Part shown: positions 3,220-8,277 of the stretch, piece by piece
How the letters are laid out: every line of letters begins with the position of its first letter
Numbering within the stretch: position 1 is the first letter of the stretch
Virus record (IMG/VR): IMGVR_UViG_2740892421_000006
Length of the DNA: 8,277 nt
Source of the DNA: a virus
Taxonomy: Duplodnaviria; Heunggongvirae; Uroviricota; Caudoviricetes
Reading direction: 5' to 3' (one strand)
Notes under the pieces: model-generated
Told to the model about the DNA's origin: nothing
The model's database searches: none
What the model saw: only the letters and a program-made list of their open reading frames with translations
Made by a program: the position numbers and the translations under genes

Positions 3220-3748
3220 TGATATGACGACGAAAGATATCACCTACGGCATACCGGCTGAAGTATGGCCGCGAGACTACGAACATGCTGAACGCACCTT
3301 GCTCTTCTGGCGGAGAGCTAAATTTCCTGTAAGAGTCACTCTCGAAGACGGCCAAGTGTTTTGCATGTACGTTTATGGTCTCATGTCATCTCGTAACAAA
3401 GTTGACCTTTGTCCAACTCCATTTGACAAAGAAAATCGTATAAGGCTCCCACTTGAGCGCATTAGCACAATTGAATCAGGCGTAATTGATGGCATTGATT
3501 ACGATTTCAAAGGGAGACTAACAATACACCCTGACTATGTAGACAACCAGCCATCACGTCGTGACTTTTTTAAGATATGTCGCAAGGCTTATCAAAACGG
3601 CCAATCTATAAGGGTCTACATGGCAGACGGCCGCGAAATTGAGGGAACGTCAGATGGCGTTGATGCCTGCCTAGTCACACTTAAGTTGAACGACGGCAGA
3701 AAAATTCTTGTTTTCTTCGATTGGGTTGAACGAATTTTACCTTTTTGA
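3185..3748 (+). CDS. hypothetical protein with internal tandem repeat, possibly Rof/YaeO-like; start uncertain (3185 or 3224)
   Basis: Long ORF; the alternative ATG at 3224 lies 5 nt after the lipoprotein stop. Two similar segments (VRVTLEDGQ...NRIRLPLERISTIE and VTLKLNDGRKILVFFDWVERI). By memory the first resembles E. coli Rof (LTLELKDGE...SRKNVEY...RELRLDKITS); not verified. Confidence 0.55.
   Translation: MVQWTYCQPLYNDMTTKDITYGIPAEVWPRDYEHAERTLLFWRRAKFPVRVTLEDGQVFCMYVYGLMSSRNKVDLCPTPFDKENRIRLPLERISTIESGVIDGIDYDFKGRLTIHPDYVDNQPSRRDFFKICRKAYQNGQSIRVYMADGREIEGTSDGVDACLVTLKLNDGRKILVFFDWVERILPF
3692..3748. repeat. direct repeat copy 1 (3' end of the 187-aa gene)
   Basis: gacggcagaaaaattcttgttttcttcgatt... 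is ~93% identical to 4058-4114; this copy encodes the C-terminal DGRKILVFFDWVERILPF. Confidence 0.85.
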
Positions 3749-3751
3749 GTT

Positions 3752-4048
3752 ATGAAATCGATACTATTGACATCATTATTTTTAGTTTACTCAATTTCAG
3801 CCAATGCAAAGGATGATATTGCAATTATTAAGTCGCTGATGCATGACGTATGCTCAACGTCTCAGAATATTCCAGTTTGTATGTTTCAACTTTCAGCAGC
3901 AGTAAAACTAGGGATAAACATAGGTAAGACCGCTCAACTATGTGAACAGGTGGAAAATTATGAACCATGTGAATTGAACAACTCTTCATTGCTGTTCGTT
4001 GATGCGCTTTTTGACACCAATCGTAAGGCTGTAGAGTCAGTCCGATAA
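3752..4048 (+). CDS. small secreted 4-Cys protein (98 aa), paralog A
   Basis: Signal peptide MKSILLTSLFLVYSISANA with AxA-type cleavage site; mature part has Cys at 34, 43, 64, 73 (C-x8-C-x20-C-x8-C). Stop TAA 4046-4048. Confidence 0.6.
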   Translation: MKSILLTSLFLVYSISANAKDDIAIIKSLMHDVCSTSQNIPVCMFQLSAAVKLGINIGKTAQLCEQVENYEPCELNNSSLLFVDALFDTNRKAVESVR

Positions 4049-4057
4049 ATGTATGAA

Positions 4058-4114
4058 GACGGCAGAAAAATTCTTGTTTTCTTCGATTTGGTTGACCGAA
4101 TTTTACCGTTTTAG
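4058..4114. repeat. direct repeat copy 2 with 21-codon gene remnant
   Basis: Near-identical to 3692-3748; retains a remnant reading frame ATG 4049 ... TAG 4112-4114 encoding MYEDGRKILVFFDLVDRILPF, i.e. a duplicated 3' end of the 187-aa gene. Confidence 0.85.
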
Positions 4115-4123
4115 GATATTGAT

Positions 4124-4423
4124 ATGAAAACTGTAGCAGCATTCACATTCTTAACTTTCATTTTTAGCTCTTCCGCATTTCCTCAAGAAAATAGCATTGA
4201 ACGAGTGCAACGTGTCTCTACAGAGTTGTGTTCAAAGGCGGAAGACTACGATTTGTGCATGTTAGACCTAAGCATGGCTTTAGGCGCTGCATATCAAGAT
4301 GGACTGATCGTTGCGGGATGCAAGTTGGGACTTGATGAGCCTTCGAAAGACAAATGCGAAAACTCGGAGCGTTTTCAGGAATATATAATAAAAGAAATCA
4401 GGAACTATGCAAAAAAGATGTAA
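4124..4423 (+). CDS. small secreted 4-Cys protein (99 aa), paralog B
   Basis: SD agga 7 nt upstream; signal peptide MKTVAAFTFLTFIFSSSAF; Cys at 36, 45, 66, 78 (C-x8-C-x20-C-x11-C), the same spacing class as paralog A, including the shared C-x8-C-M-x2-L-S motif. Confidence 0.6.
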   Translation: MKTVAAFTFLTFIFSSSAFPQENSIERVQRVSTELCSKAEDYDLCMLDLSMALGAAYQDGLIVAGCKLGLDEPSKDKCENSERFQEYIIKEIRNYAKKM

Positions 4424-4438
4424 ATTCCTATAAGGGTA

Positions 4439-4468
4439 ATAACCGGCTAAGTCCGGTTATTATTTTAC
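4439..4468 (+). terminator. Rho-independent terminator
   Basis: 8-bp stem ataaccgg (4439-4446) / ccggttat (4453-4460), loop ctaagt, then tattttac; 16 nt after the stop of paralog B. Confidence 0.65.
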
Positions 4469-4599
4469 ATGCCATTCGTTTAACACTCATTCAATTCTCC
4501 CCCGTATAAATATATATAAGGTCAAAAGCCGGAATTTATTATTTATTTAGGGAACACCTTCGACGATCTAACTTTTATTTCTAGGACTTTCATCCCTGC

Positions 4600-4647
4600 A
4601 AAAAAACTTAAAAAAACACTTGCAATCTTTTTTCGCGTATCGATAAT
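4600..4647 (+). promoter_or_regulatory. sigma70-like promoter with A-tract UP element
   Basis: A-rich tract aaaaaaacttaaaaaaacac (4600-4619), -35 ttgcaa (4620-4625), 16-bp spacer, -10 gataat (4642-4647); about 60 nt upstream of ATG 4707. Confidence 0.45.
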
Positions 4648-4706
4648 TGGACTCATCGAAAGCGAAATCGCTAACGACAATTAAATTTATACTAAGGATT
4701 GAAATC

Positions 4707-5357
4707 ATGGCTAACATTATCATTTCTAAAAAATCCATCATTGAAGCTGCTGCCATTGTATCCGACGAGCTGCGCGAAAAAGCAGATCTGGCAACTCAAA
4801 CATATAACGAACATTATAAAAATGGTACGCACACAAAAGCAGACAGAGCTAACATGCTTGCAGCGTCTACCAAACTAGCATACTTCACCAACAACGTTTT
4901 AAACGCTGTTAATGATGAGAAATTAGCTGGTGTCTTTTACTACGCGATCAAAGCAAGTAAACAAGCGCCAGAAGTATTTTTCCGTGATGCAATGACTAAT
5001 AGTTATTCACTGGAAAAACTGGTCTATCTGGTTAAATCAATTAAAGCTGGTAAATGCGTTTATTCCATCGCTGATATGTCAGGATCTCGTGTATTTGCTT
5101 TAATCGATATGATTAACGACGAGATCGACACGTTCACCAATGGCGCTGTTTTCGATTTAATGAATGAAGCTAAAAAAGCGTGCGAAATTAAATTGGACGC
5201 TGGCTATACTCAAGCCAACCAGTTGATCAATCTTTGCGAACGTCTTGGACTTGTTGAGAAAGTCAAAGGAATGGGAAGCGCAAAAGCTGGTACGCAGCAA
5301 TATCGCTTTATTAAAAATGATTTCTATAACTATCTGGCTGATGCTTTCAAAGCGTAA
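4707..5357 (+). CDS. hypothetical protein (216 aa)
   Basis: SD aagga (4694-4698) 8 nt before ATG 4707 (MANIIISKK...); the ORF-track start at 4647 lies inside the predicted promoter and has no SD. Stop TAA 5355-5357. No signal peptide and no recognisable motifs. Confidence 0.7.
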   Translation: MANIIISKKSIIEAAAIVSDELREKADLATQTYNEHYKNGTHTKADRANMLAASTKLAYFTNNVLNAVNDEKLAGVFYYAIKASKQAPEVFFRDAMTNSYSLEKLVYLVKSIKAGKCVYSIADMSGSRVFALIDMINDEIDTFTNGAVFDLMNEAKKACEIKLDAGYTQANQLINLCERLGLVEKVKGMGSAKAGTQQYRFIKNDFYNYLADAFKA

Positions 5358-5370
5358 TTAATGGAATCTT

Positions 5371-5391
5371 GCGCCCACTATGGGCGCTTTT
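5371..5391 (+). terminator. intercistronic hairpin (partial terminator/attenuator)
   Basis: gcgccca-cta-tgggcgc followed by only tttt, then immediately the SD aaggag (5392-5397) of the next gene; the same stem sequence as the terminator at 5641-5665. Confidence 0.5.
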
Positions 5392-5404
5392 AAGGAGCTT
5401 AATC

Positions 5405-5635
5405 ATGTTTATTCTTATCGCTGGCGTTAACGTGCGCAATGAATATTTTGTTAATCGCATCGCTGGGATCGCTGGTTACGCTGGGCGCGCAGTCGAGTTT
5501 ATCGATGAAACGACGCGCAAAATTGACTTATTGAGCGACCAGGAGCGAAAAAAAGCAGACGTGAATGACGCTGATATATTTTTAATGTTGAAAGCGTTTG
5601 TAGAAATGGGATTCAAAATTAGTTTACACAAATAA
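5405..5635 (+). CDS. hypothetical small protein (76 aa)
   Basis: SD aaggag 7 nt upstream of ATG 5405 (MFILIAGVNVR...); the ORF-track start at 5369 falls within the upstream hairpin. Stop TAA 5633-5635. Confidence 0.55.
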   Translation: MFILIAGVNVRNEYFVNRIAGIAGYAGRAVEFIDETTRKIDLLSDQERKKADVNDADIFLMLKAFVEMGFKISLHK

Positions 5636-5640
5636 AATCG

Positions 5641-5665
5641 AGCGCCCACTATGGGCGCTTTTTTC
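5641..5665 (+). terminator. Rho-independent terminator
   Basis: Stem agcgccca (5641-5648) / tgggcgct (5652-5659), 3-nt loop, then a T6 run; 6 nt after the stop of the 76-aa gene. Confidence 0.75.
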
Positions 5666-6251: not shown

Positions 6252-6734
6252 TTACACGCCATCAAGGATGTGGATGCGGTTGCTTGCGTATACATTCAGC
6301 ATAAAGTTAGCGCAAAACAGTTTCCATGTATCAACGCCAGCGGTATACGTAATGTTTTTGCATTTAATTGCATTGTTGGCGATCCGCATCCCCTGCGATA
6401 CTGCTTCATCGTCGGAAAATTTGAACGACGATTGAGTTTTAATCCAGACAGAAATCTGCGTAGCGAACTCAATCAGCTTGGACTGGCAGAATCGCCCGGA
6501 GCGCACCGGAAAGACGAACGTTCCGAATCCAGAATTTACCACATACGCTTTCTCAAATACCCGCGAGTAACGACGATTGCCAATGATGTCGCGTGCAATA
6601 ATGCATTTTTCTTGTGCTGACAGTTCTACCGTCTCATTGTCGCGCCATGCACCAAGTACTCGTTTTTCAATGTCAGAGAACGTTACAGCGATATTGCCAT
6701 GTGCGGGTGCGTTTACAGTAGCGATAAAATTCAT
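6252..6734 (-). CDS. hypothetical protein (160 aa)
   Basis: Minus-strand ORF with SD aagga 7 nt upstream of ATG (6732-6734); stop TAA 6252-6254. No recognisable motifs. Confidence 0.55.
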   Translation of the reverse strand: MNFIATVNAPAHGNIAVTFSDIEKRVLGAWRDNETVELSAQEKCIIARDIIGNRRYSRVFEKAYVVNSGFGTFVFPVRSGRFCQSKLIEFATQISVWIKTQSSFKFSDDEAVSQGMRIANNAIKCKNITYTAGVDTWKLFCANFMLNVYASNRIHILDGV

Positions 6735-6855
6735 GATTAATTCCTTATCGTAAATAACAAATTGTTTCTTGTTGTTGTTAATTATCGTTGTACGAATAAG
6801 GCGTCAAAGTGGAAAGTTGCGGTAGCCGGACGGGAACAGGTGGGTTTGTCGGTTG

Positions 6856-6932
6856 CCTGGAGGTAAGAGGTTGGTGTTTTTAGCCTGCGGGAAACAGGAT
6901 GGTCATTTAAGGCCACCAATGCTGATGGCCTT
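6856..6932. repeat. cassette-flanking repeat, left copy (hairpin-forming)
   Basis: ctggaggtaaga ... ggtcatttaaggccaccaatgctgatggcctt; the core matches 7967-8001 with 3 substitutions; lies immediately 3' (minus sense) of the 310-aa gene stop (TGA 6937-6939). Confidence 0.8.
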
Positions 6933-6936
6933 GTTT

Positions 6937-7869
6937 TCAACTGGAATAAGAATAATCTGTATTGATGAGTAAAGGCGCATCATCCACTAATCCTGACAGA
7001 AACCAGCGAGCAGTCCCGTAAAGTTCAAGGGCGTCAAGATAGCCTTCATGCAGTGCACCAACCCCAAACACATCATTATCAGCCATAGCTACCGCATCTA
7101 CGGCCAGATACTCTATGAGTTCTTCCATGCTTTTTATATTTATATCGTCTAAAATCTCCAGTTTGTTCTCAATCTCATTGAAAGGGATATCCGGCATCGA
7201 ATGCACTATGATTTTTGGCACATCATTCTCATTATTTACCTCCACAATAACAATTCCATACTCTGTAAAAAGAGAACTAAAGAATCTATTAAACTCTAAA
7301 TTAACAAAAGATGCCGAACCATTTAAACGCTCAACATATGGGGAACGAAAAGCTGAATGTAAATTATTTTTTCTACTTTCCTTGCCATATTCTATAATCA
7401 ACTCTTTATTTTTGATCTTCTCGAGTATTCCACCTAGCTCCTCTACAATTAAAGCGCCAGTGTTTTCTCTTTCTTTTGATACTATAGTTGAAAGACTGAT
7501 CAAGGCTTCTGTTATACTGTTATTAGAAACGATCAGATGAAATAGCTCCAGCATAGCCAATCGACCACTATCAGTGAACGTAACAAAGTTTATTGCATCT
7601 ATTTCATTTTTAATCGCAAGAAACTCACATTTATTTTTGATGTTTTCCCGAATTGACATCTCCACACGCTGTCTTATTCTCAACACCTGCTTAAAGTAAG
7701 TATTTTCAAAACATTCGACAGAAAATGTCTTCTTACCATCATTCACAATAGCCAATCTGTATTCACATTCAAGACCATTAAGTTCAAGGCAATCACAGTC
7801 ATATTGGGACCCATCTTTAACTGAAAACAATTCACTAATGTCAATTTGTCCCAAAAATACTGGTTTCAT
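6937..7869 (-). CDS. hypothetical protein (310 aa), AT-rich cassette gene
   Basis: Minus-strand ORF with SD agga upstream of ATG (7867-7869); appears markedly more AT-rich than flanking DNA; bracketed by the two repeat copies. No recognisable catalytic motifs. Confidence 0.65.
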   Translation of the reverse strand: MKPVFLGQIDISELFSVKDGSQYDCDCLELNGLECEYRLAIVNDGKKTFSVECFENTYFKQVLRIRQRVEMSIRENIKNKCEFLAIKNEIDAINFVTFTDSGRLAMLELFHLIVSNNSITEALISLSTIVSKERENTGALIVEELGGILEKIKNKELIIEYGKESRKNNLHSAFRSPYVERLNGSASFVNLEFNRFFSSLFTEYGIVIVEVNNENDVPKIIVHSMPDIPFNEIENKLEILDDINIKSMEELIEYLAVDAVAMADNDVFGVGALHEGYLDALELYGTARWFLSGLVDDAPLLINTDYSYSS

Positions 7870-7949
7870 TTTTAATTCCTCGTTTGTTTTCGATGTGATA
7901 ATTATCGCTGAATGAAATAGGCTAAAAAGAAGATTTGTAAGGCAACTAT

Positions 7950-8001
7950 CTGGAAGTAAGGCAAAGGGTGGTCATTTAAGACCACCAATGCTGGTGGCCT
8001 T
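7950..8001. repeat. cassette-flanking repeat, right copy (tandem hairpins, contains Chi octamer)
   Basis: ctggaagtaagg ... ggtggtc-atttaa-gaccacc (7967-7986) overlapping ccacca-atgc-tggtgg (7982-7997); GCTGGTGG at 7990-7997. Relative to the left copy it lacks an ~18-22-bp internal segment. Confidence 0.8.
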
Positions 8002-8006
8002 AATAA

Positions 8007-8150
8007 TTATCGCCCGATTACGCTAAGGATCTTTTCCTCAACTGATTTGTTGTTGCGACTAAACTGCCTTGCGTATCTGATGACAGAAGAGGCGTTTCGC
8101 TTTCTGACCATCTCGGCTCTTTCCTTCAGGCGTTTCTTGAAATCGCCCAT
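8007..8150 (-). CDS. small basic ORF (47 aa), not in the supplied ORF track
   Basis: Found by manual translation: ATG at 8148-8150 (minus) to TAA at 8007-8009, MGDFKKRLKERAEMVRKRNASSVIRYARQFSRNNKSVEEKILSVIGR; its start is 2 nt after the stop of the upstream partial ORF; SD-like ggtgg upstream. Confidence 0.4.
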   Translation of the reverse strand: MGDFKKRLKERAEMVRKRNASSVIRYARQFSRNNKSVEEKILSVIGR

Positions 8151-8152
8151 AT

Positions 8153-8277
8153 TTACCACCAGGCGCAGAAGGTCAGTCTGTTATTGTGAAAGTCGTGGTT
8201 CCTGATCAGGTCTTCCACAAGCTCTTTCAACTCCCCCACATCATGCCAGTAACCTTCATCGTACTCCTGACTGCCGA
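8153..8277 (-). CDS. 3' end of a gene extending beyond the window (last ~40 codons)
   Basis: Manual translation of the minus strand: ...GSQEYDEGYWHDVGELKELVEDLIRNHDFHNNRLTFCAWW then TAA (8153-8155); open to the window edge. Confidence 0.45.
   Translation of the reverse strand, partial: GSQEYDEGYWHDVGELKELVEDLIRNHDFHNNRLTFCAWW

Follow-up and report, generated by a model that had tools for sequence, protein, structure and literature searches.

Closest described systems

The genomes of T4-type phages each carry about 50 copies of PeSLs (promoter-early stem-loops), mobile regulatory cassettes composed of a stem-loop and promoter motifs, at which recombination shuffles genes together with their expression signals (Arbiol et al. 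2010, PMC2839356; Comeau et al. 2014, PMC4122927). Excised mini-circles with one chimeric motif are a further mark of this type of cassette. We describe here a locus with comparable properties in an 8,277-nucleotide (nt) stretch of viral DNA (IMG/VR record IMGVR_UViG_2740892421_000006; Caudoviricetes), the whole of which is referred to below as the window and which, judging from its matches, is part of an SSU5/pHCM2-like phage-plasmid of Escherichia coli. An AT-rich gene encoding a protein of 310 amino acids (aa) lies in this window (positions 6937–7869, minus strand) between two copies of a hairpin-forming repeat. It is probably one of many alternative self-contained cassettes that are shuffled, in a manner similar to that of morons and PeSLs, by homologous recombination at terminator and leader modules.

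The likeness to PeSLs is threefold. ORFans of a hyperplastic region are bordered by a composite intergenic module (stem-loop, promoter, Shine-Dalgarno sequence and start codon, the promoter and the terminator role of the stem-loop being putative here); one genome has two motif copies with an ORFan between them, where a close relative has a single copy (here, the window and plasmid p1448_4 versus plasmid pYPE3); and the modules are recombination joints between unrelated sequences, with expression signals that accompany the gene, as is proposed here. There are also differences. This locus belongs to a temperate SSU5-like siphovirus/plasmid rather than to a lytic T4-like myovirus, its hairpin and -10 box are 60–170 nt apart rather than interleaved, and two hairpin copies and about five leader-motif copies are present per genome, rather than about 50 PeSLs. 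In place of a strong, full sigma-70 consensus, it has a (TG)CGATAAT box that recurs and is followed by conserved leader sequence.

Morons are reportedly found in lambdoid and other temperate phages, in work attributed to Juhala et al. in 2000 and to Hendrix. The 310-aa gene resembles them in being an extra AT-rich single gene, with its own putative promoter and terminator, between genes that adjoin each other in related genomes; in morons, such signals allow expression from the repressed prophage. The insertions of classic morons are single and scattered, whereas many units compete for, and stack in, a single slot here, with common boundaries, and the AT-rich composition is old rather than the result of a recent acquisition. 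Integrons also contain head-to-tail cassettes, each followed by an imperfect palindrome in which pairing is conserved on one strand. However, no intI, attI or Pc is adjacent to this slot, the cassettes have promoter-like leaders of their own and their joints are not fixed. The stem-loop is a near-perfect one of 24 nt, unlike attC sites, which are 57–141 nt long and have extrahelical bases. The locus can, thus, be assigned to an established category, in which accessory-gene modules are shuffled at regulatory boundaries that are conserved; our literature search found no description of this slot in papers on SSU5-group phage-plasmids.

A slot with variable content

The flanks of the window match 238 E. 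coli plasmids of about 95–130 kb and no chromosomes. They are also found in phages Cyrano, PhiR41_1 and CMS-2020a and, more distantly, in Salmonella phage SSU5 and Klebsiella phage-plasmids. The best match is p1448_4 (108 kb), which is annotated with RepA, ParB, DNA polymerase III alpha and terminase, portal, capsid and tail proteins, and in which the slot is located at about 71–72 kb.

An earlier reading of the window from its letters alone (the sequence-only reading) had proposed that an AT-rich gene is bracketed by two copies of the same repeat, and this proposal was borne out. The ungapped core of the repeat is 37 nt long, is 92% identical between the left copy (6896–6932) and the right copy (7965–8001), which on the minus strand bound the cassette at its 3' and 5' ends, respectively, and recurs at a spacing of 1069 bp. 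A 32-nt repeat core had two matches at two mismatches or fewer, versus 0.00 expected (200 shuffles). The longer left copy, proposed to begin at 6856, did not hold up as well as the core: beyond the 37 nt, the left part displays only a gapped and patchy similarity to 7950–7964 (CTGGAGGTAAG versus CTGGAAGTAAG). The gene order on the minus strand is as had been described, with one repeat after each neighbouring gene (47-aa open reading frame (ORF), repeat, 310-aa gene, repeat, 160-aa gene). The 310-aa gene has a G+C content (GC) of 36.0%, versus 45.8% for the 160-aa gene, 46.5% for the 47-aa ORF and 49.6% for the end of the 124-aa gene, but AT-richness is not unique to this gene, as positions 1050–2850 and 4350–5100 of the window are equally AT-rich.

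The content of the slot was surveyed in an evenly spaced sample of 60 records from the 238 related E. coli plasmids. Twenty-five of the 60 (about 42%) had an empty-sized slot, 23 (about 38%) had the span of a 93-aa cassette and eight had a different right flank; the remaining four comprised one each with the 310-aa gene, a 196-aa gene and a 65-aa gene, and one span with no identified occupant. The 310-aa gene itself is present in three of the 238 plasmids. An alignment of four elements revealed three states between identical flanks: the 310-aa gene in the window and p1448_4, an unrelated 196-aa gene with the same leader of about 110 nt in pCP53-113k, and an empty site in pYPE3. The empty allele of pYPE3 (one that was aligned to the base) has a single repeat copy and lacks 1069 bp, exactly the repeat spacing.

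A map of all loci, made by tblastn with 17 reference proteins and including further contexts from homologues of the 310-aa protein and from IMG/VR, yielded at least 13 arrangements between a 131-aa gene and the 160-aa gene. Designating genes by the lengths of their products in amino acids, the arrangements include 124+47 alone; 124+47 with 93; 93 alone; 124+47 with 196; 124+47 with 65; 86+99+93; 232 alone; 124+47 with 310; 93+310; 124+47 with an antitoxin/ParE pair and 310; 124+47 with an antitoxin/ParE pair, 232 and 308; and 78+99+302. A further stack consists of 93- and 324-aa genes. The 160-aa gene (6252–6734, minus strand; phrog_1641, PHROG E = 7e-97) is conserved and adjoins the slot in every related locus of this map, forming its fixed downstream border.

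The slot is, thus, a fixed locus between conserved genes with rapidly swapped and diverse cargo, including a ParE toxin-antitoxin pair. The sequence-only reading had interpreted the layout as a gene cassette at a recombination hotspot and had suggested a comparison across genomes; this comparison supports its interpretation, as the flanks are conserved and the content between them varies from empty single-copy sites to unrelated genes. The cassettes mostly encode single small acidic proteins (isoelectric point (pI) 4.1 for the 93-aa protein, 4.7 for the 196-aa protein and 4.85 for the 232-aa protein), and their boundaries are short, putatively regulatory repeats. The 93-aa gene (MTDFTI...) is named 'ABC transporter' in some RefSeq copies (L010 2140–2421, L014 5130–5411), which looks like an annotation error for a 93-aa protein with no NCBIfam match.

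Junctions and proposed mechanism

In the mechanism proposed, the slot between the 131-aa and 160-aa genes (minus strand) would be a hyperplastic and variable stack of small self-contained expression units. Each unit would consist of a leader containing a Shine-Dalgarno sequence as well as a -10-like GATAAT box, one gene or toxin-antitoxin pair, and a GC-rich hairpin (GGCCAYC-loop-GGTGGYC) followed by TTAAATGAC, which would act as a terminator or 3'-end stabiliser of the sense transcript. Because the hairpin and leader motifs are common to otherwise unrelated units, they would provide short patches of homology for recombination. Recombination at these patches would join cassettes to the backbone, stack them and swap alleles between co-resident phage-plasmids, and a crossover between two flanking copies would delete the cassette, leaving the single-copy 'empty' site of many relatives.

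The junctions are exact. In the slot alleles scanned, each cassette has a 3' end consisting of the hairpin and CTTAAATGAC, with the sole exception of L022, from a distant element, in which an unrelated hairpin is followed by AAATGAC. Homology stops exactly after GAC, against three unrelated downstream leaders: CATCCTGTTTCCC (resident leader, 160-aa gene), CACCCTTTGCC ('type-2' leader, 310- and 196-aa genes) and TTTTAATAACC (leader of the 93-aa gene). The cassette carries the left arm of the hairpin and the loop along with it. As far as AAGAAAACAA, the leader of the 93-aa gene is also that of the 65- and 86-aa genes, which diverge beyond this point, marking a second joint. At the empty site of L072, a hairpin variant of the upstream type (GGTGGTC) is fused to the leader of the 160-aa gene, and this would be the product expected of a crossover within CTTAAATGAC between two flanking copies.

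Allele replacement, age and loss

Two comparisons inform on the history of the 310-aa gene. Between the window and L015, synonymous divergence is 0.70 for the 310-aa gene and 0.018 for the adjacent 160-aa gene, and identity in the alignment climbs to about 99%, beginning at the stop codon and hairpin. This gap of about 40-fold between adjacent genes requires recombinational allele replacement. Between the window and L022, by contrast, the two genes have diverged alike at synonymous sites (2.44 for the 310-aa gene and 2.15 for the 160-aa gene), and the 310-aa family is therefore an old occupant of the slot that has often been lost and has been exchanged as alleles. The homologue in L022, which occupies the same slot, is only 26% identical at the protein level, versus 65% for the 160-aa protein, because the 310-aa gene has a higher ratio of nonsynonymous to synonymous substitution rates (dN/dS) and not because it is of foreign origin. 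With a synonymous divergence of more than 2, this homologue is also AT-rich (37.5% GC), and AT-richness is, therefore, an old property rather than a mark of recent acquisition. A recent foreign origin of the gene is, thus, not supported.

The dN/dS ratio is 0.32–0.39 for the 310-aa gene and 0.05–0.29 for the 160-aa gene, and the 310-aa gene evolves about three times faster than its neighbour at the protein level. A value of about 0.33 shows that the protein is functional and is subject to purifying selection, with relaxed constraint. A nonsense allele, with an in-frame stop at codon 135 in a gene that is 99.4% identical, is present in E. albertii plasmid p3RM15115 (L023 5001–5933) and in six similar plasmids, all 62-kb reduced derivatives of the phage-plasmid in which the gene lies downstream of the antitoxin/ParE pair. 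Its presence in seven E. albertii plasmids shows that the 310-aa gene is dispensable.

These data bear on an alternative in which the history of the locus is vertical, with repeat-mediated loss only: the 310-aa gene would be an old resident, the repeats would be similar terminators of neighbouring genes, and the polymorphism would result from recurrent deletions. Such a history would account for the presence of a 26%-identical homologue at the same position in a distant relative with a synonymous divergence similar to that of the 160-aa gene (2.4 versus 2.15), for the constant position of the 310-aa gene beside the 160-aa gene, for a deletion length equal to the repeat spacing and for the dispensability of the gene in E. 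albertii. It is nevertheless unlikely as a full explanation, because the difference in synonymous divergence with respect to L015 demands the replacement of alleles and because unrelated genes (those encoding 196, 232, 65 and 93 aa, and the ParE pair) are found in the same slot with common leaders or hairpins, a pattern that loss cannot yield. Repeat-mediated loss is best seen as one component of cassette shuffling.

The hairpin repeat

On the minus strand, the left copy contains the hairpin AAGGCCAUCA-GCAU-UGGUGGCCUU (6909–6932) followed by AAAUGAC, and the right copy, which follows the 47-aa ORF, contains the corresponding stem (stem B, 7978–8001) and an alternative stem (stem A, 7967–7986). 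Stem B (AAGRCCACCA/TGRTGGCCTT, with an ATGC loop, on the plus strand) folds in both copies, and the gene-sense strand of each reads AAGGCCAYCA-GCAU-UGGUGGYCUU, then AAAUGAC. The predicted minimum-energy fold of the left copy is stem B (-16.7 kcal/mol, z = -2.6), and the predicted hairpins range overall from about -16.6 to -18 kcal/mol (z -2.6 to -3.8). No credible RNA family was found in a search of the window against Rfam.

Conservation of the stem is strand-specific. Seven stem pairs vary on one side only among 14 hairpin variants, and all of them stay paired, as G·U, in the gene-sense strand, in which 95.7% of cells are paired; on the complementary strand, the same changes result in A·C mismatches, with 87.9% of cells paired and no wobble types. 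This asymmetry and the location of the hairpin directly behind stop codons speak for selection acting on the sense RNA, in which the hairpin would be a terminator or a 3' stabiliser, and the pattern of variation points to a role of the repeat at the RNA level.

The sequence-only reading had mentioned ordinary terminators found throughout the genome as an explanation that would undermine its proposal, but the repeat is, in public collections, essentially confined to the slot. It is present in two copies in the whole 108-kb plasmid, and the pattern GGCCAYC-N6-GGTGGYCTTAAATGAC was found in only three contigs among 185,579 species genomes: two Kluyvera contigs of about 100 kb, taken to be related phage-plasmids on the basis of their size alone, and one metagenome bin in which the spacing is 471 bp, as it is for the 93-aa cassette. 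In IMG/VR, every hairpin-bearing match is located at this slot, the remainder being chance matches inside unrelated coding sequences. A host repeat of the repetitive extragenic palindromic (REP) type, like a genome-wide terminator, is ruled out by the two plasmid copies and the three contigs.

The loop of the hairpin is itself variable (GCAT, ATGC, GCAG, CTGC, CATGC and a TTAACG form). Two pairs of these variants (GCAT/ATGC and GCAG/CTGC), found in L024–L072 and the earlier loci, are exact reverse complements, the stems and flanks being unchanged, and are recurrent minute inversions. Minute loop inversions have long been known for hairpins of chloroplast non-coding DNA. In the phage-plasmids, they suggest that a DNA hairpin or cruciform forms at some frequency.

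A second alternative is an integron-like, site-specific array, in which the hairpin and TTAAATGAC would constitute a folded, attC-like site for a phage-plasmid recombinase and cassettes would be excised as circles and reinserted. The head-to-tail stacking of cassettes ending with the same hairpin, a right edge of the repeat that stays constant whichever of three different sequences follows it, the conservation of the stem in a strand-specific manner, as in attC bottom strands, and the presence on the plasmid of a gene for a tyrosine recombinase would all be consistent with such an array. However, the only annotated tyrosine recombinase gene of p1448_4 is located at 17.7–18.8 kb, more than 50 kb from the slot and in a repressor/integrase-like context, rather than beside the array. 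The cassettes have promoter-like leaders of their own, whereas integron cassettes are typically promoterless, and no GTTRRRY-type core was seen in the two leader regions of the window or in the 196-aa allele. The joints occur at varied positions (breaks within the leader motif, cassettes with no upstream hairpin and one allele with an unrelated hairpin), and the cassettes were never found outside the slot. We therefore consider a site-specific array of this kind very unlikely. An integron proper was rejected: no recombinase is annotated within the locus, the joints vary and the cassettes have promoter-like leaders.

The two overlapping and mutually exclusive stem-loops noted from the sequence alone exist in the right copy but are not a conserved feature. 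Stem A (GGTGGTC/GACCACC, 7 bp) is perfect only in that copy, in which it prevails in the minimum-energy fold (-18.0 kcal/mol, z = -3.8) and gives a minus-strand terminator-like hit (7986–7967) in a terminator scan; it is mismatched or absent in the left copy and in most relatives. Conserved, riboswitch-like alternative stems are ruled out on these grounds. It is, accordingly, very unlikely that the two stems form a terminator/antiterminator switch governing read-through into the cassette gene, with the duplication incidental, even though they overlap in the right copy and stem A, followed by CUUUGCCUU, scored as terminator-like and wins the minimum-energy fold, because stem A requires CACC after GAC, a sequence restricted to copies that precede type-2 leaders (in most copies it is CATCC, with one mismatch, or TTTTA, with no stem), the left copy and relatives fold into stem B alone, and no leader peptide, ligand-binding element or Rfam match is evident.

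Leaders and promoter-like boxes

The other module proposed to take part in cassette shuffling is the leader. The type-2 leader of the 310-aa cassette (7870–7964, minus strand) has a Shine-Dalgarno sequence (GAGGAA, 7876–7881), a -10-like box (GATAAT, 7901–7906) and the conserved stretch ttcattcagcGATAATTATCACATCGAAAACAAACGAGGAATTAAAAATG. It also precedes the unrelated 196-aa and 232-aa genes and all homologues of the 310-aa gene, in differing upstream contexts: the 310-, 308-, 302-, 232- and 196-aa genes have ttcattcagcGATAATTAtCACATCGAAAACAAACGAGGAATTAAAAATG in common, with a hairpin, a ParE terminator or another cassette as the upstream neighbour. The resident leader of the 160-aa gene (6735–6895, minus strand) is near-identical across alleles regardless of slot content. 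It has a deletion variant of the leader motif ACCAACAAGAAAACAAnTTGTT, a -10-like GATAAT (6781–6786) within CGATAATTA (6779–6787) and, 15 nt upstream, a TTGACG box (6802–6807).

The window contains three copies of the 9-mer CGATAATTA (at 6779, 7899 and 8004, all on the minus strand), versus 0.07 expected, and two of these copies lie 30–45 nt ahead of a start codon. In E. coli and Klebsiella elements alike, the motif (T)GCGATAAT-(t/a)A-c-ACCAACAAGAAAACAA-n-TTGTTT is found before most genes of the block, followed by a Shine-Dalgarno sequence and ATG. The motif has five matches in p1448_4, all on the minus strand (0.1 expected by chance): four near 71–77 kb and one at 88.8 kb. An orphan copy (AATCAAGAAAACAAC, p1448_4 75690–75705) lies in a 1.5-kb stretch with no annotated gene (74268–75824, within L005); it may be the remnant of a lost cassette or belong to an unannotated gene or RNA.

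TGnGATAAT would correspond to an extended -10 form, and both leaders are presumed to have promoter activity. The palindrome reported by the sequence-only reading in the 5' leader of the 310-aa gene is present at 7897–7906 (GATAATTATC) and encloses the -10-like GATAAT; rather than a dedicated operator, it is better read as an instance of this recurrent box. An operator could be formed by AAACAAnTTGTTT; the leader of the 310-aa gene has AGCGATAAT and only half of the palindrome, and its box has no TG.

The untranslated spacer between the left hairpin and the promoter-like box of the 160-aa gene (6810–6895, minus strand) contains 36 C and 12 G residues in 86 nt. It is rut-like, is conserved from E. 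coli to Klebsiella elements and could act as a Rho-dependent insulator, providing a backup for termination after the left copy. An ORF listed in the leader of the 160-aa gene (6782–6940; annotated as a 58-aa gene in pJN2-26) is probably spurious.

Weighing cassette shuffling

Several points weigh against shuffling by homologous recombination between modules with expression functions. RecA-dependent recombination has a lower length limit to which a patch of 34–37 nt comes close, and the annotation of the plasmid includes no recognisable phage recombinase. A site-specific mechanism would likewise account for the right edge of the repeat, which is sharp and constant (after CTTAAATGAC). The 310-aa gene has homologues only in this one slot and always beside the 160-aa gene, with no sign of the cassette moving elsewhere, and the modules of p1448_4 are few (two hairpins and about five leader motifs) by comparison with the roughly 50 PeSLs of a T4-like genome. 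As for expression, a simple sigma-70 scan detected no full -35/-10 promoter in either leader, and UUAAAUGAC, which follows the hairpin, would make a weak U-tract in an intrinsic terminator. The data show the polymorphism, the exact junctions, the restriction of the repeat to the slot, the strand-specific conservation of the stem and the purifying selection on the gene; promoter and terminator activities, the recombination pathway and the role of the 310-aa protein are described here as we infer them.

The 310-aa protein

The 310-aa gene (WP_044071370.1) is an intact ORF starting with ATG. Its product is acidic (pI 4.6, net charge -22), with a maximum 19-residue hydropathy of 1.3 and no transmembrane segment, and is predicted to be soluble. 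Its family comprises four clusters in 5.8 billion proteins, at identities of 99%, 91%, 63% and 26%, and every one of them is located in this slot. These four clusters and one 98-aa fragment were all that was obtained from two large protein searches together with a HMMER scan of the full set of 1.84 billion representatives. By these searches, the protein is a narrow acidic ORFan.

The protein matches no housekeeping family: no significant family match was obtained with Pfam, PHROG, NCBIfam or the protein searches. The proposed link to defence or abortive infection found no support in database matches either: PADLOC-DB 2.0 contained no family at E ≤ 1 for the 310-, 196-, 160- or 124-aa proteins, a profile search of PDB gave only noise (E = 0.053), the structure models were weak (predicted local distance difference test scores, pLDDT, of 31 and 57), and the fold searches were uninformative. 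No match to defence models was found for the single-gene occupants in PADLOC (310- and 196-aa proteins) or NCBIfam (310-, 196- and 93-aa proteins).

The acidic cassettes and the ParE toxin-antitoxin pair are compatible with accessory conflict functions, and our guess is that the acidic 310-aa protein has an accessory function in phage-host or phage-phage conflict. More specifically, and tentatively, the 310-aa family, which occurs only in SSU5-like phage-plasmids, might be a new type of single-protein effector in such conflicts (defence, superinfection exclusion or anti-defence), and the slot a dedicated array of self-expressing 'conflict cassettes' with hairpin and leader boundaries selected for interchangeability; we regard this as a possibility rather than as an expectation.

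Other features of the window

Two further genes lie on the upstream side of the 310-aa cassette. A 47-aa basic ORF (8007–8150, minus strand; MGDFKKRLKE..., pI 11.3) is not annotated in RefSeq plasmids but corresponds to CYRAN_109 in phage Cyrano. Its ATG is 2 nt past the stop codon of the 124-aa gene (TAAATATG), and its own stop codon falls within the third copy of CGATAATTA (8004–8012). The 124-aa gene is represented by its 3' end (8153–8277, minus strand; an ORF with a match to phrog_7971), which runs off the window. The 47-aa ORF displays 83–100% identity across related loci and, elsewhere, is missing jointly with the 124-aa gene; the two genes form a separate optional module.

Bracketing of genes by repeats is also seen elsewhere in the window. 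On the plus strand, the copies of a second direct repeat of terminator-like character (AATnnAATCnnGCGCCCACTATGGGCGCTTTT; 88% identical) lie at 5360–5391 and 5631–5662, on either side of a 76-aa gene. The same repeat pair brackets a 67-aa gene and the 76-aa gene in pN1131_1 (L009 333–366 and 829–862), with a spacing of 496 rather than the 271 of the window. The content of the 5360–5662 bracket, thus, differs among plasmids, which suggests that the principle of bracketing recurs in the divergent gene block. A 62-nt direct repeat (3692–3753 and 4058–4119; 90% identical, spacing 366) brackets a 98-aa ORF (3752–4048) with a signal-peptide-like N-terminus, and the next ORF (4124–4423, 99 aa) is paralogue-like. 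This pair of repeats may reflect the tandem duplication of a cassette or an insertion.

Implications for phage-plasmid biology

E. coli, Shigella, Salmonella Typhi and Klebsiella commonly carry SSU5/pHCM2-like phage-plasmids, in which resistance and defence genes are being reported more and more often. The locus described here provides an example, at base resolution, of how small accessory genes are probably gained, stacked, swapped and lost through short terminator and leader modules common to different cassettes rather than through transposons or integrons. The PeSL/moron principle, known from lytic T4-like phages, would thereby apply to a temperate phage-plasmid as well. Current understanding is not overturned by these observations. 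Their value lies in a well-delimited test bed and a list of candidates: the slot is addressable, and the at least eight uncharacterised, mostly acidic ORFan proteins that it encodes are candidates for defence, anti-defence or host-modifying activity.

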